Positions 3,075 to 50,036 of a stretch of 64,000 nt of DNA are shown here, piece by piece (the first letter of the stretch is position 1; every line of letters starts with the position of its first letter). Source of the stretch: Bernardetia sp. MNP-M8 (GTDB taxonomy: Bacteria > Bacteroidota > Bacteroidia > Cytophagales > Bernardetiaceae). The position numbers and the translations under genes were made by a program. The notes beneath the pieces are model-generated. The model did no database searches and had not been told where the DNA came from. It saw nothing but the letters and a program-made list of their open reading frames with translations. The stretch covers positions 3,244,676 through 3,308,675 of the forward strand of contig NZ_CP147012.1 of the NCBI RefSeq assembly GCF_037126285.1, in the 5' to 3' direction.

Positions 3075-5489
3075 ATGTCTAATTTATCTGAAAAGGAATT
3101 AAAAAATGCTATCGAAAATTGTGCAAAAGAGCCTATACATCGTTTGGGTTCAATACAACCTCATGGTTTTTTGATTGTATTTTCAGAAGAAATGACAGTA
3201 TTAGGAGTAAGTCAAAATCTAATACAAGAAACAAATTATAGTTTTGAAGACCTTATAAATAATTCTTTTTCTAAATTATTGGGAGAAAGACAAACTCTTT
3301 TTATCCAAAAAAAGATAAAAGAGGTTAACCTACAACAAGAAACAGCTTATTACAAAACAATCAACCCGTTACGTCTTTTCTTAGAAATAGATACAGAAAA
3401 AAAGCCATTTGATGGAATTATTCACAAAAGTAATCAAGGATTTATATTAGAATTAGAATCAATAGATACAGAAAAAACAGAACTTATAAGAGATAATTTT
3501 TATCAAATCAATAAAAAATCTATTATTCGTTTTCAACATTCCAATACGCTTACAGAGCTATATAAAGTAATTGTAGAGGAAGTAAGAAATATTACAGATT
3601 TTGATAGGGTAATGCTTTACAAATTTAATGAAGAATATGATGGACAAATTGTAGCCGAAATAAAAAGAGAGGAAATGAATCCTTATTATGATTTATGGTT
3701 TCCTTCTACCGATATTCCTCAGCAAGCAAGAGAATTATATCTCAAAAATTGGCTGCGTTTGATTGTAGATACAGATTATAAACCCTCTCCTATTTTATTA
3801 GCTGATTCTCTACAAAATGATTATTTAGATTTGAGTTTTTCCACGCTTCGAAGTGTTTCTCCTGTGCATATCGAATATCTCAAAAATATGGGAGTGGGTT
3901 CTTCTATGTCTATTTCTATTGTTATCGATAATAAACTGTGGGGACTTATCTCGTGCCATCACAACTCTGCTAAAAGAGTAGATTATTCTACTCGTATGAC
4001 ATCTGAGTTTTTTGGTCAGCTCGTTTCACTACAAATTGACAGATTACAAAAAAATGCCATTCAATATGATAGATTAGAAAAAAGAATTTTATCAGAAGGT
4101 ATTATCGAATCGCTCAATGAAGAGAGAAATATCTATGCAGGAATGATAAAGAAAGGAAATTCTTTTCTTAGGCTCTTGGAAGCTGATGGTTTTGCTGTTG
4201 TCAATCTTATTGAAAGTACTAGAAAAATAAAAAAAATAGGAATCACACCAACTGATGAACAAATTTGGGAAATTACGGATTGGTTAGATAAGGAATATGA
4301 AAATGAATTGTTTTTTTCCTCTTGCATTACTGATGATATTTCAAGCATTAATATAGATACGACTATCTGTTCAGGATTACTCAGTATTCCCATTTCAAAA
4401 GAAGATAATAGCCGTATAATTTGGTTTAGAAAAGAATTACAACAGAGTATCAGTTGGGGAGGAAAGCCTGAAAAGGCTATTTTCAAAAACGGAGATGAGT
4501 TTGTACTTAAACCTAGAAATTCGTTTGCTAAATGGAATCAGAGTGTAGAATGTCATTCAAAACAATGGAATTTGACAGAAATAGATGTTGTTCAAAGTAT
4601 TCAAGCTAAAATTTTCTATCTTGTTACTCAAAATATGAATGAATATAGAGAAGAACTAAGAAGGAAAGAGTTGGAACAACAAGTACAGATTCGTACAGAA
4701 GAACTCACAACAACAAATGAAAAATTAATTCAGGAAGTGAGTCAAAGAGAAAAAATAGCTTTTCAACTTAATGCTGGAATGCGACAACTAGAGCTAACTA
4801 ACAAAGAGTTAGAACACTTTGCTTATGTAGCTTCTCATGATTTACAAGAACCATTGAGAGCAATTGCTAGTTTTAGCCAACTTTTAGAAAAACGCTATAA
4901 AGGGCAGTTAGATGAAAAAGCTGATATGTATATTGGTTTTATTATTGAAGGCTCAAATCGGATGAAAAGTCTTATTATGGATTTGCTGCTTTACTCAAGA
5001 TTGCATCGCAACGAAACTCCTCATAAAGAAGTAAATTTGCAGCAAATTTATCAAAATGCACTCAAAAACCTGACTCTTAGAATAGAAGAAACAGAAGCTA
5101 AAATAGAATTGCAAGATGAATTACCTACCACAAATTTAATGGGTAATGAAACAAAGCTAACTCAACTTTTTCAAAATTTAATAGGAAATGCAATTAAATA
5201 TCGCTCTGAAAAAACTCCTCATATAAAATTATCTTATACAGAAACAGAAAAGTATTTTGAATTTACTATCTCAGATAATGGAATCGGAATTGATTCAAGG
5301 TTTGCTGAGAGAATCTTTGTTTTGTTTCAACGTTTGCACACAAAAGAACAATATGAAGGAACAGGAATCGGACTTGCGCTTTGTCAAAAAATTGTAGAAC
5401 AGCATAACGGAAAAATTTGGCTAAATACTCAAAAAAGTAAATTTGGAGAAGGAACAACCATCCATTTTACATTAAAAAAATCAAATTAA
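3075..5489 (+). CDS. bphP: Bacteriophytochrome histidine kinase (PAS-GAF-PHY + HisKA/HATPase)
   Basis: N-terminal 'ENCAKEPIHRLGSIQPHGFL' matches the biliverdin-binding Cys and IQPHG motif of DrBphP-like proteins. H-box 'SHDLQEPLR'. C-terminal HATPase G-boxes 'DNGIGI' and 'GTGIGL'. Confidence 0.9.
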   Translation: MSNLSEKELKNAIENCAKEPIHRLGSIQPHGFLIVFSEEMTVLGVSQNLIQETNYSFEDLINNSFSKLLGERQTLFIQKKIKEVNLQQETAYYKTINPLRLFLEIDTEKKPFDGIIHKSNQGFILELESIDTEKTELIRDNFYQINKKSIIRFQHSNTLTELYKVIVEEVRNITDFDRVMLYKFNEEYDGQIVAEIKREEMNPYYDLWFPSTDIPQQARELYLKNWLRLIVDTDYKPSPILLADSLQNDYLDLSFSTLRSVSPVHIEYLKNMGVGSSMSISIVIDNKLWGLISCHHNSAKRVDYSTRMTSEFFGQLVSLQIDRLQKNAIQYDRLEKRILSEGIIESLNEERNIYAGMIKKGNSFLRLLEADGFAVVNLIESTRKIKKIGITPTDEQIWEITDWLDKEYENELFFSSCITDDISSINIDTTICSGLLSIPISKEDNSRIIWFRKELQQSISWGGKPEKAIFKNGDEFVLKPRNSFAKWNQSVECHSKQWNLTEIDVVQSIQAKIFYLVTQNMNEYREELRRKELEQQVQIRTEELTTTNEKLIQEVSQREKIAFQLNAGMRQLELTNKELEHFAYVASHDLQEPLRAIASFSQLLEKRYKGQLDEKADMYIGFIIEGSNRMKSLIMDLLLYSRLHRNETPHKEVNLQQIYQNALKNLTLRIEETEAKIELQDELPTTNLMGNETKLTQLFQNLIGNAIKYRSEKTPHIKLSYTETEKYFEFTISDNGIGIDSRFAERIFVLFQRLHTKEQYEGTGIGLALCQKIVEQHNGKIWLNTQKSKFGEGTTIHFTLKKSN

Positions 5490-7685: not shown

Positions 7686-7840
7686 AATCTATAAAATCAA
7701 ATTGTGAAGGAAAATGTTTTGTTATCTTTGTAAACTTAAATTCTTTCTCGGTCTGACCTTCGGCACTGACCTACATCATAAATAAAAAGATATTTTGCAT
7801 TCATTCACAATTTATCATTCATAATTCACCATTCAAAAAA

Positions 7841-9608: not shown

Positions 9609-10559
9609 ATGAAATATCTACAAAACCCTTATTTGCCTACGGCTATTCTGTTGTTTCTACTCGCTTTTTTGGGGTACAAGACTTTTTTTGATGAACGTTA
9701 TACTCAAACTGAAAAAGAAATTTTTGGTTATAATTATCATCAAAATATAGGCTTGAAGGAAGAATATACTGAATTAGCAACAAGAGCGTGGCATAGTGTG
9801 GGAAGGCATTTTGAAGAACATGGAGTTGAAGAAAACGATTACATAAAAAAGATAGATGCTCGTTTCAAAAAACAAAGAGATGAACTTCAAAAAATTTATC
9901 AAGAAACTCATAATACCTATTTTGAAGAGCCAAGATTTGAGTTAGTCAAAGAAAAAGTAAAATCAAATCCCAAATATACAGAAGAGCGTACCGTCGTCGA
10001 ATTTCCTAATCTGAAAGTCGTTACAGCTTTCAATGAATATGTCCAAAAAGTATCAGCTTTAGATTCCTCGCTTTCGAAGCGTTATCAAGATTTTGTGTTT
10101 GAAGAGGGAATGAACAACAAAGAATTAGACGATTTTTATTTTGATACAGACGATTATTTGAGAGCCTTTCATTATTCTCGTTTTGAGGCACAACTTGCCA
10201 CTATGTATTACGAAGATGCAAAACTACTTTCAAGAAAATATTTTCTCTTTCCTCTTGATTTGAAAGCAGAAGATATAAAAGTTGTGCCTTATGTGCATTA
10301 CAAAAAAGAAAAAGACAAACCATATTATATTATTACAATGAGTGTTGTTCCTTTCGATAAAGAGAATACTCGTCTCGTTTACCCAGAAAATGTAGAAACC
10401 AAATTTGATGAAAATGGATTTATCATTGTCCCAAAAGAATTTAGAAAAGGAATACAGAAATTTCAAGTACAAATTCCAACGCTTCTTCAAAGTGATACTT
10501 CTTTTGTTATCGTACAAGATTTTGACTACCTAAATAAATATTATAAAGATGAAGAGTAA
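9609..10559 (+). CDS. Hypothetical N-terminally membrane-anchored protein (paralog group member 1)
   Basis: N-terminal TM. Followed by two paralogs with overlapping start/stop codons. Confidence 0.5.
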   Translation: MKYLQNPYLPTAILLFLLAFLGYKTFFDERYTQTEKEIFGYNYHQNIGLKEEYTELATRAWHSVGRHFEEHGVEENDYIKKIDARFKKQRDELQKIYQETHNTYFEEPRFELVKEKVKSNPKYTEERTVVEFPNLKVVTAFNEYVQKVSALDSSLSKRYQDFVFEEGMNNKELDDFYFDTDDYLRAFHYSRFEAQLATMYYEDAKLLSRKYFLFPLDLKAEDIKVVPYVHYKKEKDKPYYIITMSVVPFDKENTRLVYPENVETKFDENGFIIVPKEFRKGIQKFQVQIPTLLQSDTSFVIVQDFDYLNKYYKDEE

Positions 10560-14420: not shown

Positions 14421-15695
14421 ATGAAAAAAAAACTTATTCTATCTCTATTCTTTCTGTTTTTTATAAGTGTTTCAAATTTTGCTAAAGCTAATCAGATAAT
14501 GATTGCGATGGACGAAACACAGAAAAATCATTTAAAAGCCTACGGAATTGCATTTGCTGTTCTTAAACAAGATATGACTGTCGAATGGCTTCTAAACTAT
14601 CGTGGTGGTAGTTTTATGTTTGATTATTCTCGTCCTTTTGAAGAAGAAATGCGCCTTCGTGGAGTGAGTTTTGAAATTATCTCAGAAGCTCAAGCAACTC
14701 AAGTTCGCAGTCAGATTGCAAAGGCTGATGTTAATATGGACATTGTAAAACTGGAAGTTGCTCCAAAAATTGCTGTTTATTCTCCAAAATCCAAACAGCC
14801 TTGGGATGATGCTGTAACGCTTGTTCTGACTTATGCAGAAATTCCTTATGATGTCGTTTTTGATGATGAAATTATGCAAGACAAACTCCCTGAATATGAT
14901 TGGTTACATTTGCATCACGAAGATTTTACAGGACAATATGGAAAATTTTATGCTAGTTATTCAGGTCAAAAATGGTATCAAGACCAACAAAGAGAATATG
15001 AAGAAGTAGCCAAAAAATATGGTTTTGCTAAAGTTTCAGAGCTTAAATTAGCTGTTGTAAAGAAGATTCAAGGATATTGCTTAGGTGGTGGATTTATGTT
15101 TGCCATGTGTTCGGCAACAGATACATACGATATTGCGCTTGCAGCTGAAGGAATTGATATTTGTGATAGAGTTTATGACGGTGACCCTGCCGATCCAGCA
15201 GCCAATAAAAAATTGAAGTTTGAGAATACATTTGCTTTCAAAGATTTCAAATTAGTCTTGAATCCTTTTGAATATGAGTATTCTAGTATTGATAATAGTT
15301 ATCGTCAGCGCACAGGAATCACAGAAAAGAATGATTATTTTGAGCTTTTTCAGTTTTCTGCCAAATGGGATCCAATTCCGACTATGCTTACTCAAAACCA
15401 CGTTACGAAAGTAAAAGGTTTTATGGGACAAACGACAGCTTTTAGAAAAGAGTTAGTAAAATCTGATGTTGTGATTTTGGGAGAATTCAAGACAGTAAAT
15501 GAAGTTCGTTATATTCATGGAACAATGGGAAAAGGAACATGGACTTTTTATGGGGGACACGACCCAGAAGATTATCAACATTATGTAGGAGAAGCTCCAA
15601 CAGACTTAAACCTACACCCACAATCCCCTGGATATAGACTAATTTTGAATAATATTTTATTTCCTGCTGCAAAGAAAAAGAAGAGAAAAACGTAA
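14421..15695 (+). CDS. Conserved hypothetical secreted protein (signal peptide, Lys-rich C-terminal tail)
   Basis: 424-aa ORF with an N-terminal signal peptide. No motif I can assign with confidence. Confidence 0.5.
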   Translation: MKKKLILSLFFLFFISVSNFAKANQIMIAMDETQKNHLKAYGIAFAVLKQDMTVEWLLNYRGGSFMFDYSRPFEEEMRLRGVSFEIISEAQATQVRSQIAKADVNMDIVKLEVAPKIAVYSPKSKQPWDDAVTLVLTYAEIPYDVVFDDEIMQDKLPEYDWLHLHHEDFTGQYGKFYASYSGQKWYQDQQREYEEVAKKYGFAKVSELKLAVVKKIQGYCLGGGFMFAMCSATDTYDIALAAEGIDICDRVYDGDPADPAANKKLKFENTFAFKDFKLVLNPFEYEYSSIDNSYRQRTGITEKNDYFELFQFSAKWDPIPTMLTQNHVTKVKGFMGQTTAFRKELVKSDVVILGEFKTVNEVRYIHGTMGKGTWTFYGGHDPEDYQHYVGEAPTDLNLHPQSPGYRLILNNILFPAAKKKKRKT

Positions 15696-37892: not shown

Positions 37893-38309
37893 CTAAAGTG
37901 AGAGTAAAATTAAAACTAAAATCAGAGGAACAAAAATTAAACCTCCTACAAGTAATAAAACACCAAGTAAAATTTCTCCAAATGCAAGAGCAATAATTCC
38001 TCCTATAAGTCCTCCCAAAATAAGTAAAACTGAAATTAAAATGGTAGCAAAGAAACCATCTCCATCAGATTTTATTTTTTTTGCCTGTTTTTTCTGTGCT
38101 TTTTTGATTTTCTTCTTGACAAGTTTTAAAGCTAATCTCTCTTTGAAATTGAGCTTTTTCTGTTTTTTTATACTAGTTTTTTCTGATTTTTTTACAATTT
38201 GATTTATAGTAATTTCTTTTTGAGTTGAAGTTTTAGAATCGCTTTCACTTGCAAAAGTAGAAAGCGAGAAAAAGAAAAATAGAAGAGTAATAAAGTAGGT
38301 GGTTTTCAT
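37893..38309 (-). CDS. Hypothetical small protein: signal peptide, Lys-rich basic middle, Gly/Leu-rich C-terminal TM
   Basis: Internal ATG at 38309 (MKTTYFITLLFFFFSLSTFA) was chosen. The longer ORF-track version overlaps the esterase gene. Confidence 0.4.
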   Translation of the reverse strand: MKTTYFITLLFFFFSLSTFASESDSKTSTQKEITINQIVKKSEKTSIKKQKKLNFKERLALKLVKKKIKKAQKKQAKKIKSDGDGFFATILISVLLILGGLIGGIIALAFGEILLGVLLLVGGLIFVPLILVLILLSL

Positions 38310-38400
38310 AATTTTGTGGTTTTTGAATAACATCATAATCTGTATTTGACCTTTTAGATGTTGCTTTTTATGAAAACGTTGCTTCGTACAATTATAATGA

Positions 38401-39252
38401 TTACTCTCCGTTGTTGGTATTCTCACCAACGACACAATTAAAAAGCCATTTCCACATGCTTTCATCTTCATAAGCAGATTTCCAACTTCCGTGTCTTACT
38501 TTTTCGTATTCTGTATAATAAATGTCTTTGTTTCCTGTTTTCTTCACTGCTTCTACCATGTTTCGGCTGCGTTGTGGTTTTACGGTTTGGTCTAATGCTC
38601 CATGAAAAACCCAAATAGGCATATATTTTAAAGAATCTGCTGTTTTTTCGTCTGCACCTCCACAAATAGGTACAATAGCTGCAAACTTTTGAGGGAAACG
38701 TGCAGCCAAATCCCACGTTCCATATCCTCCCATCGAAAGTCCTGTAAGGTAAATTCTATTCGAATCTATTGGTAGTTCTTTCTCTAACTCTTCCAAAAGC
38801 TCAACTGTCAAGTTCATATACTTACTCATTTCTTTTGGTTGATTGTGTGAATCTGCCGACCAATCTACTTCTACCCATTTATTCTTCTTTTCACATTGAG
38901 GAACAAGCACAAAACATTCATAATCTTTTCTATTTTTTTCTTGCAATGCCCAAGCTCCTATATGTTTGACAGTAAGCGAACTATCGCCACGTTCTCCTGC
39001 ACCATGAAGGAATAAAACTAAAGGATATTTCTTTGTAGAATCATAATTTTTGGGAAAAAGCAAACGATAAGCCATCGAATCTGTTTCATTTGTAGAATTA
39101 TTATGCATGACGAACAACTTATGTTCAAAAAGTTCGTATCTTAGTAGTTGAGGCTCTGTTTGTTGTCCAAAAACTGGAACTGACAAACTAAGCACAAACA
39201 CACACAATAACAGACACAAAGAAGCACTAAAAGAATACATTTTATTTTTCAT
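38401..39252 (-). CDS. Secreted alpha/beta-hydrolase esterase (phospholipase/carboxylesterase or PHB-depolymerase-like family)
   Basis: Signal peptide. 'PLVLFLHGAGERG', nucleophile elbow 'GLSMGGYG', 'VFHGALDQTV'. Confidence 0.75.
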   Translation of the reverse strand: MKNKMYSFSASLCLLLCVFVLSLSVPVFGQQTEPQLLRYELFEHKLFVMHNNSTNETDSMAYRLLFPKNYDSTKKYPLVLFLHGAGERGDSSLTVKHIGAWALQEKNRKDYECFVLVPQCEKKNKWVEVDWSADSHNQPKEMSKYMNLTVELLEELEKELPIDSNRIYLTGLSMGGYGTWDLAARFPQKFAAIVPICGGADEKTADSLKYMPIWVFHGALDQTVKPQRSRNMVEAVKKTGNKDIYYTEYEKVRHGSWKSAYEDESMWKWLFNCVVGENTNNGE

Positions 39253-39330
39253 AAAGGAAATTATTATAAACCCTAAGGGTTTTGAGAAACCATTAGTTTT
39301 TAGAAACTACTTAGACAACCAAAATTAATT

Positions 39331-40821
39331 ATGAGCGAAATTCAAGCCGATTCCGTTTCTTTTGCAGGTCAAGACTCAAATTCAGGCGCAAAAGATAATT
39401 CAAAAGAAGATTTTAAAAAACAAATAGACGAAATTTTTGAAGCACAACAAAATAATCGTTGGGCAGTTTCAAAAACAACATCAAAAGAGCGTATTGAAAA
39501 ACTAAAACGTTTGCAAGATGCACTCTTCAATTATCGTTCAGCTTTTCATCATTCTCTTCGTCAAGATTTTGGAAAGCCAGAAGCAGAAACCGATTTATCA
39601 GAAATTTATCCTACATCAAACGAAATAAAACACGCTATTTCGAATCTTGAAAAATGGATGAAAGACGAATCTGTAAGCACGCCTGTGGCTCTTTTAGGTT
39701 CAAAATCCTATATTCGTTACGAAGCAAAAGGTGTTTGTTTGATTATTGCACCTTGGAATTACCCAGTAAATTTAATCTTAATTCCTCTTATTTCTGCCAT
39801 TGCAGCAGGAAACTGTGTAATTTTGAAACCTTCTGAATATACGCCAAATACGAATGCGATTATGGCACAACTTATCAAAGAAGTTTTTGCAGAAAATGAA
39901 GTAGCCTTTATAGAAGGTGAAGTAGAAGTATCAAAATATTTGACTCAACAGCCATTTGACCATATTTTCTTTACAGGAAGTACAGCCGTAGGAAAAACAA
40001 TTATGAAGGCTGCAGCAGAAAATTTGACTTCTGTAACCCTTGAACTTGGTGGAAAATCACCCGTTATTGTTGATGAAACAGCAAATATTAAAGAGGCAGC
40101 CAAAAAAATTGTTTGGGGTAAATTCTTAAATGCAGGTCAGACTTGTATTGCTCCTGATTATGTGTTGGTTCATGAAGACATCGAACACGAACTTATCCAA
40201 CAAATGCTCAAATATTTAAGTGAATTTTACGGACAATCTTCTGGCGAACGTTTGGATTCTCCAGATTATGCACGCATTATCAATGAAAAACAATATAAAA
40301 CACTTGTTGAGCTTATCGGAAAAGCAAAAGGGCAGGGTGCAGTTATTCATACAGGAGGAACGGTTGTAGAAGAGCAGCGTTATATTGCTCCAACAATTAT
40401 GTCAGAAGTTCCTTTGGATTCGGAAGTAATGCAACAGGAAATTTTTGGTCCTATTATGCCAGTTATTCGATATAAATATCTGAATGACGCACTAGATTTA
40501 ATCAATAAAAAAGATAAGCCATTAGCGTTGTATCTTTTCTCACAAGAGCGCAAAACGATTGATAATGTGCTTGCTTCTACTTCTTCGGGTGGAGTTTGTA
40601 TTAATGATACTGTTATTCATTATTTCCAACATAATTTACCTTTTGGTGGTGTCAATCATAGTGGAATTGGAAAAGCGCATGGTATTTTTGGATTTAGATC
40701 TTTCTCTAATGAACGTGCTGTTTTGGAACAACCAACTCGTTTTAGCGCACCTCAACTGATGTACCCTCCTTACAAATCAGAAGTTCAATCACTTATTGAT
40801 TTTACTGTAAAGTGGATTTAA
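39331..40821 (+). CDS. Aldehyde dehydrogenase (class 3 / fatty or coniferyl aldehyde dehydrogenase-like)
   Basis: 'ELGGKSP' and catalytic 'GQTCIAPDY'. NAD-binding 'FTGSTAVGK'. Confidence 0.9.
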   Translation: MSEIQADSVSFAGQDSNSGAKDNSKEDFKKQIDEIFEAQQNNRWAVSKTTSKERIEKLKRLQDALFNYRSAFHHSLRQDFGKPEAETDLSEIYPTSNEIKHAISNLEKWMKDESVSTPVALLGSKSYIRYEAKGVCLIIAPWNYPVNLILIPLISAIAAGNCVILKPSEYTPNTNAIMAQLIKEVFAENEVAFIEGEVEVSKYLTQQPFDHIFFTGSTAVGKTIMKAAAENLTSVTLELGGKSPVIVDETANIKEAAKKIVWGKFLNAGQTCIAPDYVLVHEDIEHELIQQMLKYLSEFYGQSSGERLDSPDYARIINEKQYKTLVELIGKAKGQGAVIHTGGTVVEEQRYIAPTIMSEVPLDSEVMQQEIFGPIMPVIRYKYLNDALDLINKKDKPLALYLFSQERKTIDNVLASTSSGGVCINDTVIHYFQHNLPFGGVNHSGIGKAHGIFGFRSFSNERAVLEQPTRFSAPQLMYPPYKSEVQSLIDFTVKWI

Positions 40822-40871
40822 TATAGTTTTAAGGTCGTTGGTGAAAATACCAACAATGGCAAAATATTTTT

Positions 40872-40912
40872 ATAAAAACCTATTCTTTCTTTTTTGAGAG
40901 AATAGGTTTTTT
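40872..40912. repeat. Left copy of a ~40-bp terminator-like hairpin direct repeat (aaaaacctattctttcttttttgagagaataggttttttt)
   Basis: Near-identical copy at 43614..43653 on the far side of the OLD-family operon. Confidence 0.75.
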
Positions 40913-40949
40913 TGTATATTTAAAAAAAATAAATTTTAAAAGACTTTTA

Positions 40950-41171
40950 ATGGAAAATTTACAAAAAACAGTTTACTTTTCTACAAGAGAAGGACTTCAA
41001 GCAATAACTCATATAGATTATGCAATAGATGCAGTAACTAAAAAGCGTGATATTTTCATAGAAGAAAATACAGATAAAATAGCAAAGGTAATAGAAGAAA
41101 ATATTACTACAGAAATTTACAATAATACTATACTAATTATTATCCTTAAGTTATCTTATTATCCTAAATAA
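40950..41171 (+). CDS. Small hypothetical protein (73 aa), paralog A, ends ...KLSYYPK
   Basis: Shares N-terminal ME(N/K)L.KTVYF, central D.FIE.N.D.IAKVI and C-terminal KLSYYPK with the next ORF. Confidence 0.5.
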   Translation: MENLQKTVYFSTREGLQAITHIDYAIDAVTKKRDIFIEENTDKIAKVIEENITTEIYNNTILIIILKLSYYPK

Positions 41172-41199
41172 TTATACATTTAAAATAAAAAACATCTAC

Positions 41200-41418
41200 A
41201 TGGAAAAATTATTAAAAACTGTCTATTTTACTGGAATAGGAGCTATTTCGCAAATAGATGAGGTAATAAAGAAAGCTACTGATAAACGTGATGAATTTAT
41301 AGAACTGAATTCAGATGAAATTGCTAAAGTAATACAAGAAGATATTATACCTGTAACATACCATCAAAATCAATCACATACTTATATAACGATAAAGTTA
41401 TCTTATTACCCTAAATAA
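41200..41418 (+). CDS. Small hypothetical protein (72 aa), paralog B, ends ...KLSYYPK. Stop lies 2 nt before the OLD-family start.
   Basis: Paralog of 40950..41171. Confidence 0.5.
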   Translation: MEKLLKTVYFTGIGAISQIDEVIKKATDKRDEFIELNSDEIAKVIQEDIIPVTYHQNQSHTYITIKLSYYPK

Positions 41419-41420
41419 TT

Positions 41421-43202
41421 ATGCGTTTAAAAAAAATTGAAATTATAGATTTTAAATCTGTAAAAAGGGAAACCATTGATGTTAATTCAAATCAACTTTG
41501 TTTTGTAGGAAAAAATGAAAGTGGTAAGTCAAGTTTAATTCTTGCAACGAGTTATTTGAATATTTTAGATACGGAATTTACTACAAATCTATTAAATAAA
41601 AGTTCTGAAAGATACCCTGAAGGTTTTCCTATGGTAATCGGTTTGTTTGAACTATCAAAAACAGATTTTACTACTTTAAAGAATATACTTAAAAGCCATT
41701 TTTCTGAAAAAGAACTCAAATTTCCTGCTGGAAGTTCAGATAATTGTTTGTTGCAATTAAAAAGATGGGGAAATGGATTGAATAATATATCTATCAAAAT
41801 TATTCAGAAAGATTCATTTGGTCTAGAATTATCAAAGATGATAACTGATAAAGCTAAGTTTTACGATGAATTTTTTACCAAATTATATCCTACAATTACT
41901 TATTTTGAAAAAGAAGATTTACTGATTGAACCTTCAACAGTAGAAGATTTAATAGGAGAAGATAGGCAATTTGAAACTTTTAGAAGACTATTAATAATTG
42001 GAGGTTGTAAAGATTTTGAGTACTTGAATAGTTCTGATACTTCTTTCGTTACTACATATATTTCTAAAATAGAAACGAAGCTCAATGCAATTTTCAAAAA
42101 ACATTATAAACAAGACGGTAGTATTATTATAAAAATAGTTACTACATTTAATAATAAGTTAGATTTAATTATACAAGATAGTTCTAAAAATAGTTATTCG
42201 ATAAAAGAAAGAAGTCCTGGATTTCAATACTATTTTGCATTTTTAATCAATAAATTATATAATAAGCATATAAGCAAAAGTAAAAACTCAATTTTACTAC
42301 TAGACGAACCTGGAAATAGTTTACACCCAAAAGGAGCTAAAGATTTATTAAAGTCTTTTGATGAAATAGCAGAAAATTCTCAAATATTTTATACTACACA
42401 TAATCCATTTTTAGTAATTAGAAACTGCTTAGATTCTTTAATTTTCGTAGATAAATCTGAAACACTTGGTAGTCAAATAAAGAAAAAACCATTTCTTAAT
42501 AAATATCAAGTTCTACGAAAAGAACTAGGTATTATGCTCAATGATAGTTTTCTAATTGGAGATATTAATTTAGTTGTAGAAGGAAATACAGAAAAATTAG
42601 CTTTTCATCGCCTTTTTCAAGACACAAAGTTTAGAGATTTAGAATGGATGAATATTTATAATGCTGATGGAGTGACAAATATTCCACAAGCTATAAACTA
42701 TCTTGGAAAAAATAATCTCAAACTTTCTGGTATTGTTATTTTAGATAGCGATGCAGAAGCAGAGAACATAAAAAAGAACAAATCCTACAAGAAAAATATC
42801 GCAGAGGCTGATTGGGAAGAAATAGAAATAAATAGTGTTTTTAGTGATAAAAAGGATAGAACGTTTGAGGATTTATTTCCTCAAGAAATATATATCCAAG
42901 CATTTAATAAATATTGTCATTCTTTAAGTGGGTTAGAAGTTTTTGAGAAAAAATATCAAGATTTCAAATCTATTGAGCCTTTGGAAACTCCTATTGTCAA
43001 TCATGTTAATCAACACTATAAGACATTTTTATCTTCCTCTAGTAAATCAACAATTACTAAACAAGATGTAATTAGACATTTGCTAGACATAGTAGATACT
43101 CTTTCTGAAAACGAACAAAAAAAAGTGTTAGAAAATGCTTTTAAACTATGCGAAAAAATAAAAACAGCTTTCATTAAAATAGAAAAACATGTCAATAACT
43201 AA
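41421..43202 (+). CDS. OLD-family (overcoming lysogenization defect) protein: N-terminal ABC-type ATPase + C-terminal TOPRIM nuclease domain
   Basis: Walker A 'VGKNESGKSS', Walker B/H-loop 'ILLLDEPGNSLHP', TOPRIM 'LVVEGNTE' Glu and 'ILDSDAE' DxD. 593 aa, as in P2 Old or GajA. Confidence 0.75.
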   Translation: MRLKKIEIIDFKSVKRETIDVNSNQLCFVGKNESGKSSLILATSYLNILDTEFTTNLLNKSSERYPEGFPMVIGLFELSKTDFTTLKNILKSHFSEKELKFPAGSSDNCLLQLKRWGNGLNNISIKIIQKDSFGLELSKMITDKAKFYDEFFTKLYPTITYFEKEDLLIEPSTVEDLIGEDRQFETFRRLLIIGGCKDFEYLNSSDTSFVTTYISKIETKLNAIFKKHYKQDGSIIIKIVTTFNNKLDLIIQDSSKNSYSIKERSPGFQYYFAFLINKLYNKHISKSKNSILLLDEPGNSLHPKGAKDLLKSFDEIAENSQIFYTTHNPFLVIRNCLDSLIFVDKSETLGSQIKKKPFLNKYQVLRKELGIMLNDSFLIGDINLVVEGNTEKLAFHRLFQDTKFRDLEWMNIYNADGVTNIPQAINYLGKNNLKLSGIVILDSDAEAENIKKNKSYKKNIAEADWEEIEINSVFSDKKDRTFEDLFPQEIYIQAFNKYCHSLSGLEVFEKKYQDFKSIEPLETPIVNHVNQHYKTFLSSSSKSTITKQDVIRHLLDIVDTLSENEQKKVLENAFKLCEKIKTAFIKIEKHVNN

Positions 43203-43611
43203 ACATAAGATTTTTGAAATAGAAATTGAAGAGGTGGATAACCTTTCTTTATCAGAAAATGCAATAAATGCTATAAATGATTTCTTAAGTGAACCCAATT
43301 ACATTTATGTAAATCATTCTATAACTGTTTTAACTAAAGATGAAGAACATTATGAGCAAATTAAAACTAAATGTAAATATTTGGTTTTAAGTCTTATATA
43401 TAAAGACTTGAATGCAACATCACTTGATATAAAAAAATCTTCTACAAAAGTAAAAAATGTGGTACGTAAACAAATTGAAGTTGGAGAAGACATGGAAGAG
43501 CCAAATATTGAAACAGAAATAGATAGAGAGATAAGAGTAATGAATGTTAATACTGGAGCAGATACAGATAATTTTGAAGAAGAAGGCTTTATAGAAGGAC
43601 AACCAATGTAA
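43189..43611 (+). CDS. Hypothetical small acidic protein (140 aa), translationally coupled to the OLD gene (14-nt overlap)
   Basis: ORF overlapping the OLD gene stop. Highly acidic C-terminus. Confidence 0.45.
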   Translation: MSITKHKIFEIEIEEVDNLSLSENAINAINDFLSEPNYIYVNHSITVLTKDEEHYEQIKTKCKYLVLSLIYKDLNATSLDIKKSSTKVKNVVRKQIEVGEDMEEPNIETEIDREIRVMNVNTGADTDNFEEEGFIEGQPM

Positions 43612-43613
43612 AC

Positions 43614-43653
43614 TAAAAACCTATTCCTTCCTCTTGAGAGAATAGGTTTTTTG
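43614..43653. repeat. Right copy of the terminator-like hairpin direct repeat (aaaaacctattccttcctcttgagagaataggtttttt)
   Basis: About 36 of 40 nt identical to 40872..40912. Confidence 0.75.
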
Positions 43654-43719
43654 CTTTTAAAGCAATTTATCTAAATTTGCTTTCAAGTATTCAAATAAAA
43701 TCCAAACTTATCTACTCTA

Positions 43720-44994
43720 ATGTTGCAAAAAACAGTATATCTTATCTTCGTTATTGTATTTTTATTTTCCTGTAAATCAAATACAGAAAAAAAAGAAATT
43801 GTATCCAGTCCAAGTGAAGAAACTACAAATTATGATAAAATCGATAGTTTGGCAAGTCGTTATCTTGATTTAGGGCGTTTTAGTGGTACACTATTGATTG
43901 CTCAAAATGACTCTATCATCTTTAATAAAAGCTATGGTTTGGCAGATTATGTCACTATAAAAGAATTTACAGACAGTACAGCTTTCAAAATTGGGCATCT
44001 TTCTGAGCTTTTTACAGAGGCTATTATTAGAGATATGATAAATCAAAATTTGATACAATCAAATGAAAAAATAGCTACATATATTCCTCAAATAAAACAG
44101 AATTTTACAGTCGAAGAGTTATTAAATCATAAATCAAACCTTCAAACAATTGCTCAAATACAAGAAGTAAATCCGAATAAAACCTATTCGTTAATTGATT
44201 ATGTAAATCTATCAAATAATGAAAATGATAAAGCAGCAGAAATTCAATCTGAACTAGATTATAATATTTTAGGATTGGTTATTGAAAAAGTCACGAACAA
44301 AACATTTTCAGAGGTTTTGGAACAGTATGCTCAAAAATGGAATTTGGAAAGCACTTATTTTCATAAAACAGATACAACTCATCTTGCAATCGGTTATTTA
44401 TTTTATAATTATCGAAACCAAGGGTTAAAAATAACCCCATCACCAAAGTATCAAGATAGTATGGCTTTTAGTAGTAGAGGAATAAAAGCAACAGTAAAAG
44501 ATGTTTTTAAGTTTGTAAATAATTTTGAAAATCAAAGTTTGGATAAAGAAGGGTATTTAATGAATGATGGCTTTAGTTATTCACTCAAAAAAGATAATGA
44601 TAAAAAACGAACAGTTCTTATTTTGAGTAATCGTAAGCATCCAGTTGCTAGAGAAATGTCTGAAAGTATAGAAAAAATATTGAATAATGAAGAATATGAG
44701 CTTCCTTTACTTCGTCAAGAAATAGCTATTAACCCAGATTTATTGAAAGAATATGAAGGCGTGTATGCAATGAATTCAACTATGAACTTGACTTTTGTAG
44801 CTGAAAATGATAGTTTGTTTGTACTGATGGGAGAAAATAAAGTGGAGCTAAAACCACAATCTGAAAATCAGTTTTTTATGTTTGAAAGTGATGCTTCTAT
44901 TCGCTTTGAGAGAGATGAGAATAATAAAGTTGCAAAAGCTGTTTTACTAGATGGCTTTTTGGAAGGAAATACAATTTTGAAAGTTAAGGGATAG
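43720..44994 (+). CDS. Beta-lactamase-fold / serine-hydrolase-like lipoprotein, possibly non-catalytic
   Basis: Lipobox 'LFSC'. 'FSGTLLIAQNDSIIFNKSYGLADY...TAFKIGHLSELFT' resembles class C/esterase N-terminal region but with S-E-L-F in place of SxxK. Confidence 0.55.
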   Translation: MLQKTVYLIFVIVFLFSCKSNTEKKEIVSSPSEETTNYDKIDSLASRYLDLGRFSGTLLIAQNDSIIFNKSYGLADYVTIKEFTDSTAFKIGHLSELFTEAIIRDMINQNLIQSNEKIATYIPQIKQNFTVEELLNHKSNLQTIAQIQEVNPNKTYSLIDYVNLSNNENDKAAEIQSELDYNILGLVIEKVTNKTFSEVLEQYAQKWNLESTYFHKTDTTHLAIGYLFYNYRNQGLKITPSPKYQDSMAFSSRGIKATVKDVFKFVNNFENQSLDKEGYLMNDGFSYSLKKDNDKKRTVLILSNRKHPVAREMSESIEKILNNEEYELPLLRQEIAINPDLLKEYEGVYAMNSTMNLTFVAENDSLFVLMGENKVELKPQSENQFFMFESDASIRFERDENNKVAKAVLLDGFLEGNTILKVKG

Positions 44995-45069
44995 TTTGCT
45001 AATTTGAAATTAAATGTATTCTTAAAACAACCTTCTAAGTAAATTCAAATCTTTAAAACTCTAAAAAAT

Positions 45070-45591
45070 ATGGCTTTAATTCTTCCTGTTCGTGGTTTTT
45101 CTCCAAAATTTGGCAAAGATTGTTTTCTTGCTCCCAATGCAACTATTGTAGGAGAAGTAGAAATGGGTGATAATTGTAGTGTTTGGTTTAGTGCTGTTAT
45201 TCGTGGCGATGTAAATTATATCAAAATTGGTCATCATACCAATATTCAAGACAATGCCACTATTCATGGAACTTATCAAACTGCTCCGACAACTATCGGA
45301 AATTATGTAAGTATTGGACATAATGCTATCGTTCATGGCTGTACTATTGAAGATAATGTTTTGATAGGAATGGGTGCAAGATTGATGGATGGTGTAATTG
45401 TCAGAACGGGAAGTATCGTAGCAGCAGGTGCAGTCGTTTTGGAAGGAACAGAAATTGAAAGTGGATTTATTTATGCTGGAGTGCCTGCAAAAAAAGTAAA
45501 ACCAATTGGCGAAAGAGGAGAAATGTTAGAACGAATTGCTACCAATTATATAAAATATTCTAGCTGGTTTATGGAAAATAAAGAAGAATAA
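45070..45591 (+). CDS. Gamma-class carbonic anhydrase-like / hexapeptide-repeat (LbH) protein
   Basis: 'APNATIVGEVEMGDNCSVWFSAVIRGDVNYIKIGHHTNIQDNATIHG', typical YrdA/PaaY gamma-CA family. Confidence 0.8.
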   Translation: MALILPVRGFSPKFGKDCFLAPNATIVGEVEMGDNCSVWFSAVIRGDVNYIKIGHHTNIQDNATIHGTYQTAPTTIGNYVSIGHNAIVHGCTIEDNVLIGMGARLMDGVIVRTGSIVAAGAVVLEGTEIESGFIYAGVPAKKVKPIGERGEMLERIATNYIKYSSWFMENKEE

Positions 45592-45866
45592 AACAAACAA
45601 AATTTCCTTTTCCTATCAAAAGTTCTTATCTTTGTAACTCATTTTCAAACAGATATGTAAAATTCTGTAAATCAATAACTTACTTTGTTTTATTCTGAGT
45701 TTTATTTCTTTTTTAAATGAATTTTATTCAAATTATTTTATCACAGTTAATTAAACACCTTATAAGCATAATTTCTTTTAATTGATTTTATTACCAGTTA
45801 AAAAAAATGCTATAAAGGCAGGCACTACGACAAGCCTGAAAGTAATTGTCTTTTTTATTTTATTAT

Positions 45867-47699
45867 ATGAGTAATTCAAACACTTCAGCAGGCGAAATCA
45901 ATTGGGAAGAATTAGAGTCTAACAAAACAGGCTTTGGTGCTGGCTATAAAGATTCACGTCAACAAGAACTTGCAGACCTTTACGAAGAAACACTTACTGA
46001 GTTTTCAGAAAATGAACTTGTTACAGGTACAATTGTAGGCGTTACAGATCGTGAAGCTATCGTAAATATCGGTCATAAATCAGACGGACTTGTATCTCTT
46101 TCAGAATTTAGAGATTTACCAGAACTTAAAGCTGGTGACCAAGTAACTGTTTATGTAGAGAAACAAGAAGACGCAAACGGACAAATTTTACTTTCTCGTC
46201 GTAAAGCAATGGCTCTTCAGGCGTGGAAAAAAATTGAGCAATCGCATCAAGGAGATGAAGTTATCGAAGGAATTATCAAACGCCGTACAAAAGGTGGTTT
46301 GATTGCAGATATTTTTGGTATTGAAGCATTTTTACCAGGTTCACAAATTGACGTTAAGCCAATTCGTGATTTTGATGTATATGTGGATAAGAAAATGGAA
46401 TTGAAAGTTGTCAAAATCAATTATGCAAATGACAACGTAGTAGTTTCTCATAAAGTTCTTATTGAGAAAGATCTTGAAAAACAACGTTTACAAATTCTTG
46501 ACAACCTTGAAAGAGGACAAGTATTGGAAGGTGTGGTTAAAAATATCACTAACTTCGGTGCTTTTGTTGATTTGGGTGGCGTAGATGGATTACTTCACAT
46601 TACTGATATTTCTTGGGGACGTATTTCTCATCCAAATGAAGTATTAGAACTTGACCAAAAACTTAATGTTGTTGTTCTTGATTTTGATGAAGACAAAAAA
46701 CGTATTTCATTAGGTATGAAACAACTTCAAGAGCATCCTTGGGATTCGCTTGAAGCTACTTTAGAAGTAGGTACAAAAGTAAACGGACGTATTGTGAATG
46801 TTGCTGATTATGGTGCATTCTTAGAAATCAAACCAGGTGTAGAAGGTTTGATTCACGTTTCAGAAATGTCTTGGTCGCAACACTTGCGTAATCCACAAGA
46901 ATTCTTGAGTATCAATGATACAGTAGATGCAGTTATCTTGACTATTGACCGTGAAGAGCGCAAAATGTCATTAGGTATCAAACAACTTACTGAAGATCCT
47001 TGGACGAAAGAAGAAGTTAAAACTAAATATGCTTCTGGTGAGCGTCATACAGGTACAGTTCGTAACCTTACTAACTACGGTTTATTCTTAGAGTTAGAAG
47101 AAGGAATTGATGGACTTGTTCATATTTCTGACCTTTCTTGGACTCGTAAATTCAAACACCCATCTGAATTTATCAAAGTAAACGAAAAATTAGAAGTTCA
47201 AGTATTAGAACTTGATACAGAACAACGTCGTTTGGCTCTTAGTCATAAACACATGGAAGAAAATCCTTGGGATACTTTCGAAACTATCTTTACACCAAAC
47301 AGTGTACATAAAGGTACTTTAGTGAACAAAAATGACAAAGGTGCAAATATCGAACTTCCTTACGGTGTACAAGGATTTGCTTCTACAAAACACCTTACTT
47401 TGGAAGAAACAGGTAAAACTGCTGAGGTTGGAAACAACATCGACTTCAAAGTAGTAGAGTTTTCTAAAGACGAGCAACGTATTATTCTTTCTCACGTAGC
47501 TACATACCGTAGTGGAAAAGAAGAAACTGCAGCTCCTGCAAAGAAAGCAAAAGCTCCAAAAGGAGAAGCTAGTAAAGAAACAGCTTCAAAATCTAAAGAC
47601 ATGAAAAACTCTAAAGATTTGGAAACTACTAGTTCATTAGGAGACAATTCTGCACTTTCTCAATTGAAAGATGACATGAAAAATGACGAAGGTAAATAA
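45867..47699 (+). CDS. rpsA: 30S ribosomal protein S1
   Basis: Six S1-domain repeats ('GxV.NITNFGAFVDLGG.DGLLHISD' pattern repeated). ATG 45867 was chosen over the TTG at 45846. Confidence 0.9.
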   Translation: MSNSNTSAGEINWEELESNKTGFGAGYKDSRQQELADLYEETLTEFSENELVTGTIVGVTDREAIVNIGHKSDGLVSLSEFRDLPELKAGDQVTVYVEKQEDANGQILLSRRKAMALQAWKKIEQSHQGDEVIEGIIKRRTKGGLIADIFGIEAFLPGSQIDVKPIRDFDVYVDKKMELKVVKINYANDNVVVSHKVLIEKDLEKQRLQILDNLERGQVLEGVVKNITNFGAFVDLGGVDGLLHITDISWGRISHPNEVLELDQKLNVVVLDFDEDKKRISLGMKQLQEHPWDSLEATLEVGTKVNGRIVNVADYGAFLEIKPGVEGLIHVSEMSWSQHLRNPQEFLSINDTVDAVILTIDREERKMSLGIKQLTEDPWTKEEVKTKYASGERHTGTVRNLTNYGLFLELEEGIDGLVHISDLSWTRKFKHPSEFIKVNEKLEVQVLELDTEQRRLALSHKHMEENPWDTFETIFTPNSVHKGTLVNKNDKGANIELPYGVQGFASTKHLTLEETGKTAEVGNNIDFKVVEFSKDEQRIILSHVATYRSGKEETAAPAKKAKAPKGEASKETASKSKDMKNSKDLETTSSLGDNSALSQLKDDMKNDEGK

Positions 47700-47847: not shown

Positions 47848-48348
47848 CTATGAAAGCACATTCTGAAAATAACGTTTAAGCCACGTATTAGAAGCCTTAT
47901 TTTGCCATTGAGACTCTAACTGTTCTTTTATTTGAACCAAATTATCAAAAATAATTGTATCAGAAGTGATTTTTTGATCAATAACTAGTTCTTTAAGTTT
48001 AGAAAGAGAGGTAATGCTTATTTTATCTTCTTTATCAAAATAAGCTACTTTGGTTCTATCAAAAAGTGAAATTTTAAACTCGTCTTCAATAGCTTTCATA
48101 AGTGCTACAGATTTGTCAATAGAACATCCTGTTGCTTTTGTAAGTTCTTCGTTTACTGCCAAAATTAAAAAACGCTTATGACGAATTTCGAAAGACGAAA
48201 CTAAAGAGTTACCATGGGCTTGCCAATTTTCAATAAAATTTGTTAAAACATTCGTAATTGCCACAACTTCACTATCTGTAAGTTCTCTATCAGACTGATA
48301 AATCCAAATACGAGAATAAGAAGGCATTTTTTCAAAAGAAAGAAACAT
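47848..48348 (-). CDS. Hypothetical protein
   Basis: 166-aa ORF (start possibly at the internal ATG 48327). No recognised motif. Confidence 0.4.
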   Translation of the reverse strand: MFLSFEKMPSYSRIWIYQSDRELTDSEVVAITNVLTNFIENWQAHGNSLVSSFEIRHKRFLILAVNEELTKATGCSIDKSVALMKAIEDEFKISLFDRTKVAYFDKEDKISITSLSKLKELVIDQKITSDTIIFDNLVQIKEQLESQWQNKASNTWLKRYFQNVLS

Positions 48349-48869
48349 AATAATATTATTTTATCACTATTTTATTATAAAAAAATAGTTTGAATTAATT
48401 TAAAAGATTAAAGTTTTTATAATGTAGATAATCCTATTTTAGTAAAAAATTATAGAAGCAATATAGAAATAAAATAAAAAAAATGTTTCAAATTAATTAT
48501 AAATAGAAAATAGCCATTAAAATAGTTGATTTATTAGAATAATAACACAACTCTACAAAGTTATGTATTTTATTAGAAAGTTGCAAGATTAAAGAGGCTG
48601 CTTTTGTTTTATGTTTATAACATATTGATTTCAAGTAAGTTCAAATATTCACTATTTTTCTATTACCAATTACTATAATAATTTAATCAATATTACCTAC
48701 ATAGCAAGGTTTATGTATATACTGTTAAACTATGTTTATTTGTACTTCCTTTAACAAACTACGCTCATTTAAAGTTATATAATTGAGTTCATTTTTTTAA
48801 CTTACTAAATTCAGACCTTAATAAAACAATTTAGGCAAAACAATTCTATCACTATTTTTATAACTCATT

Positions 48870-50036
48870 ATGTCAGAATCTCTATTAAAAAATACTACTA
48901 TTACTCATTCTCAATCTAGTCTATATTTTCCCCTTGAAGTTTGTAAAGGAGAAATAGGCAAAAAAGTTTCAATTTCAGAGCTTTCTCAAACAGTTTTGTG
49001 TAGTTCTTATAACCAACTTGTAATTAGCTTTTGTATGGAATGGCAGAGCAATAAAAATGAATTTATAGTTCATACATCAGGCTCAACAGGCATTCCAAAA
49101 CCAATTACTCTTACTAGAAAACAAATGCAAAATAGTGTTTTGGCAACAGCTAAAGCATTGAATTTGAAGCAAGATGAGCGTTTTCTGATATGCTTAAACA
49201 CAGAATATATTGCAGGAAAAATGATGCTAGTTCGGGGAATGGAATTAGATGCAGAAATGATAATAGTTCCTCCCAAACGTAACCCTTTAGAAGATTTTGA
49301 TGAAAAAATGTGGTTTGATTTTGCTGCTTTTGTTCCCATGCAATTACAAACTATTTTAGACGAAACACCTGAGAAAATTGCGATTTTGCGTCAGATGAAG
49401 GCAATTATTATTGGTGGTGCGCCTGTTTCATATTCTCTTCTCAAAAAAATTCGTTCTATAAAAGCTCTCAACCGAGTTCCAATTTATTCTACTTATGGAA
49501 TGAGCGAAACTGTTACTCATATTGCATTGAAAAGGCTTAATGGAAAAGGAAAAAAGGAAATTTCGGATACCTACAAAACACTTCCAAATGTAAATATAAA
49601 AACGGATCAGCGTGGTTGTTTAGTTATTTCTGCGCCTCACACTTTGGGAAAAGAAATCACAACAAACGATTTGGTAGATATAAAAAATGACAATGAGTTT
49701 GAGTGGCTTGGGCGTGCAGATTTTGCTATCAATACAGGAGGTGTAAAAGTTTTTCCAGAAAAAATAGAAGGTTTTATTGAAAGAGCTTTTTATGAATTAG
49801 ATTTACAAAAACGCTTCTTTATTTCTTCTATACCTGATGAAACATTAGGCGAAAAAGTGATTTTGATTATTGAAGGGTTACCATTTGATAAAAATTTTGA
49901 AAATGACCTTTTACAGCATCTCAAAACAAATCTGCCTGCTTATCATACTCCCAAACAATGTTTTTATATTTCTAATTTTGCTATGACACAGACAAGTAAA
50001 ATAGATAGAAAAGAATGTCTGAATTTAATTTTTTAA
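48870..50036 (+). CDS. AMP-dependent synthetase/ligase (short form, o-succinylbenzoate-CoA ligase-like)
   Basis: 'IVHTSGSTGIPKPITLTRKQM' AMP-binding motif I, 'YSTYGMSET' motif. Confidence 0.75.
   Translation: MSESLLKNTTITHSQSSLYFPLEVCKGEIGKKVSISELSQTVLCSSYNQLVISFCMEWQSNKNEFIVHTSGSTGIPKPITLTRKQMQNSVLATAKALNLKQDERFLICLNTEYIAGKMMLVRGMELDAEMIIVPPKRNPLEDFDEKMWFDFAAFVPMQLQTILDETPEKIAILRQMKAIIIGGAPVSYSLLKKIRSIKALNRVPIYSTYGMSETVTHIALKRLNGKGKKEISDTYKTLPNVNIKTDQRGCLVISAPHTLGKEITTNDLVDIKNDNEFEWLGRADFAINTGGVKVFPEKIEGFIERAFYELDLQKRFFISSIPDETLGEKVILIIEGLPFDKNFENDLLQHLKTNLPAYHTPKQCFYISNFAMTQTSKIDRKECLNLIF

Follow-up and report, generated by a model that had tools for sequence, protein, structure and literature searches.

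An OLD nuclease gene with two small partner genes

What is the four-gene islet that separates an aldehyde dehydrogenase (ALDH) gene from a beta-lactamase-like gene in Bernardetia sp. MNP-M8, and is it one of the OLD systems already described? Few antiviral effectors are as common as OLD nucleases, and the control of the partner-less class 1 enzymes is named as an open question in a review (PMC10568477). The islet was analyzed within a stretch of 64,000 nucleotides of contig NZ_CP147012.1 (assembly GCF_037126285.1, positions 3,244,676 to 3,308,675 of the forward strand), hereafter called the window; coordinates given without a locus number refer to it. On the plus strand, the islet encodes two small paralogous proteins, A1 (73 amino acid residues; 40950..41171) and A2 (72 residues; 41200..41418), an OLD-family ABC-ATPase/TOPRIM nuclease of 593 residues (41421..43202), and a protein C of 140 residues (43189..43611). 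OLD systems as such are known already. What is new is an OLD-based module with unannotated partner proteins.

An initial annotation, made from the sequence alone, had described a four-gene operon with two paralogs of 72 and 73 residues, both ending in KLSYYPK, an OLD gene starting 2 nt past A2, and an acidic protein whose gene overlaps the OLD stop codon. A scan of open reading frames (ORFs) agreed with the paralogs, their common ending, and the 2-nt spacing, and it confirmed the four ORFs, but the conserved unit was found to have only three genes, A being duplicated here. Likewise, the 14-nt overlap of C with the end of OLD and the net charge of -14 were found in the window copy, but the acidity is not conserved: it comes from a tail particular to this copy, and the net charge of the orthologs ranges from -7 to +4.

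Is this gene arrangement common? I compared 27 non-redundant loci related to the window OLD. In 25 of them, an A gene (63-76 codons) has its stop at a distance of -4 to +2 nt from the start of OLD, and in 26, a C gene (121-188 codons) starts inside the last 8-20 nucleotides of the OLD gene, mostly at 14. The genes flanking the trio are completely different between loci. To judge from these stop and start codons, the conserved unit is a three-gene module, A-OLD-C, in which A and C are predicted to be translationally coupled to OLD. The counts also bear out the idea that the small genes are real partners of OLD and not chance ORFs.

The OLD homologs share 55-69% identity and nearly all of them are 590-600 residues long. 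They were found in Flavobacteriia (Leptobacterium, Psychroserpens, Aquimarina, Nonlabens, Dokdonia, Mesoflavibacter, Epilithonimonas, and Brumimicrobium) and further in Balneola, Saprospiraceae, Dysgonomonas, Sulfidibacterium, and an Acidobacteriota metagenome-assembled genome (MAG), while a cyanobacterial MAG has a homolog in disrupted form. The OLD gene is split into two ORFs in that cyanobacterial MAG (locus L018, 3341-5259) and in a marine contig (L033, 230-2013); these are pseudogenes or assembly frameshifts. Close OLD relatives were absent from the IMG/VR viral contigs, the INPHARED phages, and the PLSDB plasmids, the plasmid matches having at most 31% identity. With two tiny proteins co-translated with OLD throughout, this clade would provide a compact and clonable system of about 2.4 kb for OLD off/on control.

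Relation to the known OLD classes

Is the 593-residue protein a true OLD protein, and to which class does it belong? It passes the Pfam cut-offs for AAA_15 (58.3 bits, cut-off 32.1), AAA_21 (46.9 bits, cut-off 27), and OLD-like_TOPRIM (26.7 bits, cut-off 23.2). The motifs GKNESGKSS (Walker A), DEPGNSLHP, VVEGNTE, and DSD, which had been pointed out in the initial annotation, are present. In 16 orthologs, the Walker A residues G30, K36, and S37, the Walker B residues D295 and E296, the H-loop residue H327, and the TOPRIM residues E387, D442, D444, and E446 are invariant. The top PADLOC model is 'Old' (1.4e-23), with the GajA, AriA, and retron I-B ATPase-Toprim models scoring lower, and the class 1 protein TsOLD (6P74) is the sole match in the PDB that extends into the TOPRIM domain (by profile, residues 287-467). 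By these domain tests, the protein is assigned to the OLD family.

OLD classes are set by gene context: class 1 is alone, class 2 is found with GajB, class 3 with a retron, and class 4 is split into AriA and AriB (PMC10568477, PMC12392090). The defining context of each of the four classes is lacking in A-OLD-C. The module is not class 1, since in nearly all of the loci compared OLD is accompanied by A and C, whose genes are coupled to it by their stop and start codons. Class 2 does not apply, since the helicase is absent from the islet and the downstream gene is that of the 140-residue C, which has no Pfam or PADLOC match. It is not class 3, since there is neither a reverse transcriptase (RT) nor a noncoding RNA; the ORF scan detected no RT gene within the islet or next to it, and an Rfam scan of 38000-46000 matched no RNA family. 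It is not class 4, since ATPase and TOPRIM domains lie in a single ORF. Thus, the ORF, Pfam, and Rfam scans agree with the initial statement that there is no GajB-like helicase, no retron, and no AriA/AriB split.

Which class is the closest? Architecturally, class 1 (P2 Old, Thermus scotoductus OLD 6P74, Vibrio cholerae Vc OLD, and E. coli YbjD) appears to be the nearest, as the window OLD also has no helicase or RT partner. However, class 1 consists of a single gene, whereas the window OLD has two co-conserved small genes that seem to be translationally coupled to it. Gabija (GajA/GajB, class 2) similarly combines an OLD-family nuclease with a partner gene directly downstream, and GajA models match weakly (5e-15). 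In contrast to the UvrD-like GajB, however, the downstream partner here has 120-145 residues and no helicase motifs, and there is an additional partner upstream. The effector of the type I-B retron, Retron-Eco8 (class 3), can be aligned weakly over the full length (ATPase-Toprim_I-B 1.8e-15, retron_eff_Eco8 3e-9), but the window operon has no RT and no msr/msd RNA. PARIS (AriA/AriB, class 4) has the same ABC ATPase and TOPRIM chemistry, and AriA models match the ATPase part, but both activities are fused in one protein here and the partners are unrelated to AriB.

Might the OLD protein then act alone as an ordinary class 1 nuclease, A and C being unrelated cassette passengers? In its domain architecture and in its best PADLOC and PDB matches, the protein resembles class 1, and P2 Old and Vc OLD work as single genes (PMC10568477, PMC12392090). 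On the other hand, the gene order and the stop/start overlaps are kept across phyla while the flanks change completely, and C is still present where OLD identity has dropped to 41%. The A and C families roughly match the OLD clade in rarity, they were never seen fused, and in the loci examined they never occur apart from OLD except in decayed copies. A solitary action of OLD is therefore quite unlikely.

The partner proteins

The A family comprises 76 cluster representatives of 65-107 residues among 1.84 billion representatives, all of them stand-alone and none fused. A1 and A2 are 57% identical to each other and are mutually nearest among these 1.84 billion (E = 1e-39, the next best being 7e-20). 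Among the loci compared, two A genes were found only in the window. As 42 nucleotides at the end of A1 repeat the A2/OLD junction including a relic of the OLD start, A was tandemly duplicated inside the operon. This duplication scar lies at 41148..41189 on the plus strand and is 90% identical to 41395-41436 (direct repeat D1). The paired A genes are a lineage-specific local tandem duplication.

What kind of proteins are A and C? The initial annotation had proposed a candidate novel defense operon, and indeed A1, A2, and C had no significant match in Pfam, NCBIfam, PHROGs, or PADLOC; in Pfam, neither DUF4177 (PF13783) nor PF10957 was matched by A or C. A phmmer search of OLD, A, and C against PDB sequences gave no useful match. 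The C family has 50 clusters, all unannotated. The AlphaFold2 model of A2, built on a two-sequence alignment, has a beta-alpha-beta-beta fold with a predicted local distance difference test (pLDDT) score of 82.9. The model of C (pLDDT 77.9 with a 50-sequence alignment) shows a beta-alpha-beta-beta domain at residues 3-73 followed by two helices. In terms of conservation, C has an N-terminal domain at residues 1-75, the two helices, and an acidic tail at residues 124-140 that is predicted to be disordered. In a Foldseek search with the C model against viral models, phage DUF4177 and Cse60 proteins were matched with probabilities of 0.95-0.99 but with weak E-values of 0.017-0.16.

A sister clade has an OLD protein that is about 41% identical to that of the window. 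C is kept in this clade and A is absent, and two tandem ORFs of 55-58 codons follow C. The products of these small ORFs (S proteins) reach the DUF4177 family PF13783 at 25.1 bits against a cut-off of 25. In profile comparisons with hhalign, E-values were 0.26 for A and S and 0.015 for S and C, so that homology is not established. The models are suggestive of one fold class (beta-alpha-beta-beta) for A and C, and both proteins are small alpha/beta units that probably oligomerize.

In three decayed sister modules, L057 (6886-7741), L058, and L059, OLD is reduced to a stub of 44 codons, and C and the two DUF4177-like ORFs are intact. In addition, a Logan contig encodes a C homolog of 206 residues (P0276) with a C-terminal LuxR/GerE-type helix-turn-helix (HTH) domain, which may be a true fusion or a read-through into the next cassette. 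Natural variants that would help to dissect the roles of the partners are the duplicated A of the window, the pair of DUF4177 genes that stands in for A in the sister clade, and the apparent C-HTH fusion.

The module as an integron-type cassette

Are there any signs of how the module travels? Many OLD-bearing metagenomic contigs are only 2.4-2.9 kb in length and contain exactly A-OLD-C. In marine Flavobacteriia, the module opens after G|TTAGCT, and the end of the C gene carries the complementary AGCTAAC (R''). Downstream of R'' lies an imperfect palindrome (L''/L') with a variable center, and then comes a new GTTxxxx, with which the next gene opens. A different attC family, homogeneous and about 130 nt long, is present in a wetland array; there, the border is G|TTAGGC and the R'' is GCCTAAC. 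Locus L026 has three consecutive cassettes whose R boxes (GTTAGCT, GTTACCC, and GTTACCA) each match their own closing R'' at 7 of 7 positions.

Pairing was counted on the bottom strand of seven attC sites of the OLD cassette. The L''/L' stem was 83.9% paired compared with 35-55% when slid, a value of 88% also being given for the L stem; seven pairs had compensatory changes, and in 500 shuffles the covariation score was never reached. Two G.U pairs, invariant on the bottom strand, would turn into A.C mismatches on the top strand. Rfam gave no attC match in the array of a relative, and an attC covariance model was built from the OLD-cassette sites. It found 13 more sites in the loci, all co-oriented, bounding other cassettes including one with a DRT2 RT. 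These features mark the module, in many relatives, as an integron-type cassette with its own attC site.

The DRT2 gene lies directly upstream of the OLD cassette in Dokdonia (L007 and L041; 5533-7764 in L007 coordinates). It encodes an RT of 563 residues (PADLOC 1.2e-144) and is an attC-bounded cassette of its own (R' GTTGTGC, R'' GCACAAC). A retron had been considered from the presence of this RT beside an OLD copy; the idea was rejected, as the RT is a DRT2 in a separate cassette. Other neighboring cassettes encode the candidate system PDC-S04 (a Fic-domain protein, 2e-92), Abi_C with HEPN_AbiU2, PIN, SymE, Barstar, and HTH proteins.

The wetland metagenome contig L043 (1-11461) and the loci L044-L050 have a long co-oriented array of mostly single-gene units. 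The spacers of the array are attC repeats of about 130 nt that closely resemble one another (ACACGCCTATG...CATAGCCTCGGTCGTTAGxx). Such an arrangement typifies a sedentary chromosomal integron; the contig is Bacteroidota-like and the integrase is absent from it. In Leptobacterium flavescens (L003), the module lies between the copies of a short direct repeat, AAATCATAGTCGC[C]TTAT, at 7689-7710 and 10136-10160, and these repeats sit inside attC-like sequences of yet another family. The small genes around it (RusA, AHJR-like, HTH, SymE, Barstar, and DMP19) look like a cassette array.

A tblastn search of 697 kb of locus DNA with a hand-entered IntI1 query gave no match. As sampled, the arrays are CALIN-like (clusters of attC sites lacking integrases). 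How unusual is this? Integrons have been described as rare in Bacteroidetes (PMC9024848), and bacteriophage resistance integron cassettes (BRiCs), which also have homologs outside integrons, have been described for Proteobacteria (10.1101/2024.07.02.601719). Like BRiCs and other cassettes of sedentary chromosomal integrons, the module of the relatives is compact, attC-bounded, and found in co-oriented arrays beside defense cassettes, and its homologs also occur outside integrons. It differs from BRiCs in that its hosts are Bacteroidota, that it is a three-gene cassette with an OLD effector, and that an integrase was not seen in the sampled flanks. The window copy differs further, as it has no attC and is sited between housekeeping genes. 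The module documents clear attC-bounded defense cassettes in Flavobacteriia and other Bacteroidota, a phylum considered integron-poor.

What remains of the cassette in the window? Of the R'' region, no more than a degenerate trace (CAACCAATGTAA) is left at the end of C, the borders of the islet are terminator hairpins, and the flavobacterial 5' untranslated region (UTR) is replaced by the leader of the slot. Without an attC and with the 5' UTR swapped for the slot leader, essentially the ORFs alone would have been grafted in. The module shows an exit of a cassette from the integron context and its graft into a small strain-variable defense slot beside housekeeping genes.

A strain-variable slot after ALDH in Bernardetia

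Is the site of the graft special? The initial annotation had reported two terminator-like hairpins of about 40 bp bracketing the operon between ALDH and the beta-lactamase-like gene. Both were found to fold, the left copy at 40873..40912 (stem 40874-40889 / 40896-40911 with a T run after it; dG -10.9, z -6.3) and the right copy at 43614..43652 (dG -9.3, z -5.1), both on the plus strand. The two copies align over 40 nucleotides with three substitutions and one indel, all in the loop, and the alignment score of 58 compares with a shuffle maximum of 28-34. Each copy has a stem of 12-16 bp and then a T run. The core CCTATTC-N-GAATAGG has only these two sites in the window, where none would be expected by chance. 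A weak hairpin-like match at 14427 was discarded as a chance match at a gene start.

The ALDH gene (39331..40821, plus strand; NCBIfam/Pfam Aldedh) is the conserved left flank of the slot. Its orthologs in other Bernardetia are 88-93% identical, each adjoining a divergently transcribed esterase gene, and they were used to reach four further alleles. In Bernardetia sp. ABR2-2B (L053), the esterase-ALDH pair is followed by a single hairpin, a HAD-hydrolase gene, the beta-lactamase-like gene, a hexapeptide protein gene, and S1; this is an empty site. In B. litoralis DSM 6794, ALDH is followed by a hairpin, a GmrSD_N gene of 672 codons (PADLOC HEC-05, 2.8e-28), a second hairpin, HAD, and the beta-lactamase-like gene. 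A metagenomic Bernardetia (L054) has the same order of hairpin, GmrSD_N/HEC-05 gene, and hairpin, and synteny breaks beyond it. In a more distant relative (L060), the hairpin is absent and the neighbor is different.

In MNP-M8, the hairpin, A1, A2, OLD, C, and the second hairpin are followed by a junction filler of 11 nt (GCTTTTAAAGC; 43653..43663, plus strand) without a counterpart in the sister genomes, and then by the last 11 nt of the HAD gene including its stop codon (43664..43674, plus strand), as revealed when the window was locally aligned with B. litoralis and with ABR2-2B (L053 8158-8168). The HAD gene is intact in L051 and L053. Since only its last 11 nt are left in the window strain and homology to L053 and L051 restarts there, at 43664, the module has replaced HAD. 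The right flank is the gene of a beta-lactamase-fold serine hydrolase (43720..44994, plus strand), which is orthologous in L051 and L053. These alleles show that the position after ALDH is a strain-variable slot, which is empty or holds GmrSD/HEC-05 or the OLD module. The empty site with one hairpin in ABR2-2B and the other defense gene between two hairpins in B. litoralis agree with the suggested insertion or cassette exchange at a terminator.

Is the hairpin simply a common repeat? About 104 kb of Bernardetia DNA was covered by the survey. In the window, and in 13 kb from each of L051, L053, and L054, the core is confined to the ALDH slot; L060 lacks it. Within the DNA examined, it is not a genome-wide repeat of the repetitive extragenic palindrome type. 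The leader between the left hairpin and A1 (TTTGTATATTTAAAAAAAATAAATTTTAAAAGACTTTTA; 40913..40949, plus strand) probably contains a promoter or the 5' UTR. About 35 nt after the first hairpin are common to the OLD and GmrSD alleles, and the first 11-15 nt of these are also found at the empty site. In B. litoralis, the repeat unit is 58-63 nt, made up of the hairpin and the leader as far as the next start codon. Hairpin copies from a single genome have derived states in common: those of B. litoralis have the same core, and both window copies have the GAGAGAATAGG arm. This points to a local duplication or concerted evolution.

How were the cargos exchanged? Since there is no recombinase in or near the islet, the likeliest route would be general or homology-facilitated recombination over the hairpin-leader repeats and the core genes on either side. 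Alternatively, the duplicated hairpins could be the sites of a dedicated site-specific system, like a one-slot integron or a dif module, whose recombinase is encoded elsewhere. Two different cargos between copies of one unit, and an empty allele that keeps one copy, would suit such a system, as would the B. litoralis unit, which is attC-sized with a hairpin inside, the loss of synteny right past the second hairpin in L054, and the mobilization of the module by attC recombination in other Bacteroidota. However, the hairpin resembles an intrinsic terminator, with a perfect short stem and A and T runs, and it has no bulges or R/L box layout and is missed by the flavobacterial attC model. In the window and also in L054, the two copies differ in the loop/spacer, a difference that most tyrosine recombinases would not tolerate. 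The leader common to both cargos and the empty site fits descent of one slot with cargo replacement better than a series of separate site-specific insertions, and no recombinase was found within the 64 kb. A dedicated system is thus possible but clearly the less probable of the two.

A further case of direct repeats bears on the same question. In the Acidobacteriota MAG (L009), the module lies between direct repeats of at least 59 bp of the target sequence (2213-2272 and 4824-4882, 86% identity), a point in favor of site-specific exchange. The repeated sequence stems from an acyl-CoA dehydrogenase gene that lies upstream, of which it is the 3' end, and the differences are mostly at third codon positions. 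It appears to be the signature of an att-like or homology-facilitated insertion. The A gene of this locus has a frameshift in a poly-A run. Flanking direct repeats were significant only in the window and L009, and the idea that the module generally comes with a transposon-like target duplication was rejected for this reason.

Taken to its furthest, the data might mean that the module represents a fifth, partner-defined OLD class with small DUF4177/Cse60-like beta-alpha-beta-beta proteins as phage-sensing or gating subunits that can be exchanged, duplicated, and relocated to either side of OLD, and that the hairpin-leader repeat is the site of an unrecognized single-slot cassette-exchange platform with a logic akin to that of integrons. 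I regard this combination as doubtful. If it is true, the activity of integrons in Bacteroidota would be far greater than one would gather from current surveys.

Possible function of the module

What is the module for? I estimate the probability that A-OLD-C functions in anti-phage defense at about 0.6, based on the intact ATPase and TOPRIM motifs, the co-conserved partners, the mobile and patchy nature of the module, its defense-gene neighbors, and the slot that is shared with GmrSD/HEC-05. In this proposal, the islet would be a horizontally acquired copy of the three-gene module, and OLD would be an ATP-driven effector that cuts DNA. A and C would be produced in a fixed proportion via coupled translation and bind OLD as regulatory or sensing subunits, which hold OLD silent until infection or direct it to its target. 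Infection would lift the gate, and phage DNA would be destroyed or abortive infection would follow. The module would be a self-contained mobile unit that was grafted as ORFs after the ALDH terminator, the graft removing the HAD gene. The specific roles of A and C as gating or targeting subunits are tentative guesses.

Several results weigh against this proposal. The characterized OLD proteins are only remotely similar, TsOLD being reached with E = 4e-5 by profile and nothing being found by phmmer. Homology between A and C is unsupported by hhalign (E = 0.11), and the A2 model has just two sequences behind it. No integron integrase was found among the called genes in the 6-10 kb around the sampled loci, where the array heads lie beyond the sampled DNA. 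The attC covariance model R1 finds nothing in the window, L051, L053, or L054.

Could the module instead be an addiction or toxin-antitoxin (TA)-like module, with OLD as a toxic nuclease and A and/or C as its antidote? Its loss would then kill the cell, and it could also stabilize cassette arrays. TA cassettes are common in chromosomal integrons. A small gene directly upstream of, and apparently coupled to, a potentially toxic nuclease gene would be in accord with this role, and TA-like genes (SymE, Barstar, HTH, PIN, and Fic) are present in nearby cassettes. However, the decayed modules L057-L059 have lost OLD and kept C and the small ORFs, which is the reverse of what is expected for an unopposed toxin, and A is wholly missing in the sister clade. 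An addiction role is unlikely, but TA and abortive-infection roles are not mutually exclusive, and it partly overlaps with the defense proposal.

Some OLD-family proteins are not defensive (PMC12796447), and I also considered a housekeeping function (DNA repair, replication restart, or the cell cycle) of the kind suggested for Cran1, an archaeal ATPase of the OLD family. Such a role is highly improbable for a gene set that has a patchy distribution and is absent from the sister Bernardetia genomes, that is low in G+C (23-28% in the islet vs 33-37% in its flanks), and that is cassette-borne among defense genes with frequent decayed copies.

Other features around the islet

Some minor features were found in the vicinity. 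A second small hairpin, GTTGGTGARAATACCAACAAYGG, is present in inverted copies at 38408-38430 (minus strand) and 40837-40859 (plus strand). The esterase and ALDH genes, which are divergently transcribed, each have one of these copies at their 3' end, and one of the copies overlaps with the last codons of the esterase gene. The context upstream of the esterase-ALDH pair differs in each Bernardetia genome examined. Farther downstream, an intergenic region at 48100-48900 with a G+C content of 22-23% lies between a gene of 166 codons (minus strand) and an AMP-ligase-like gene of 388 codons.

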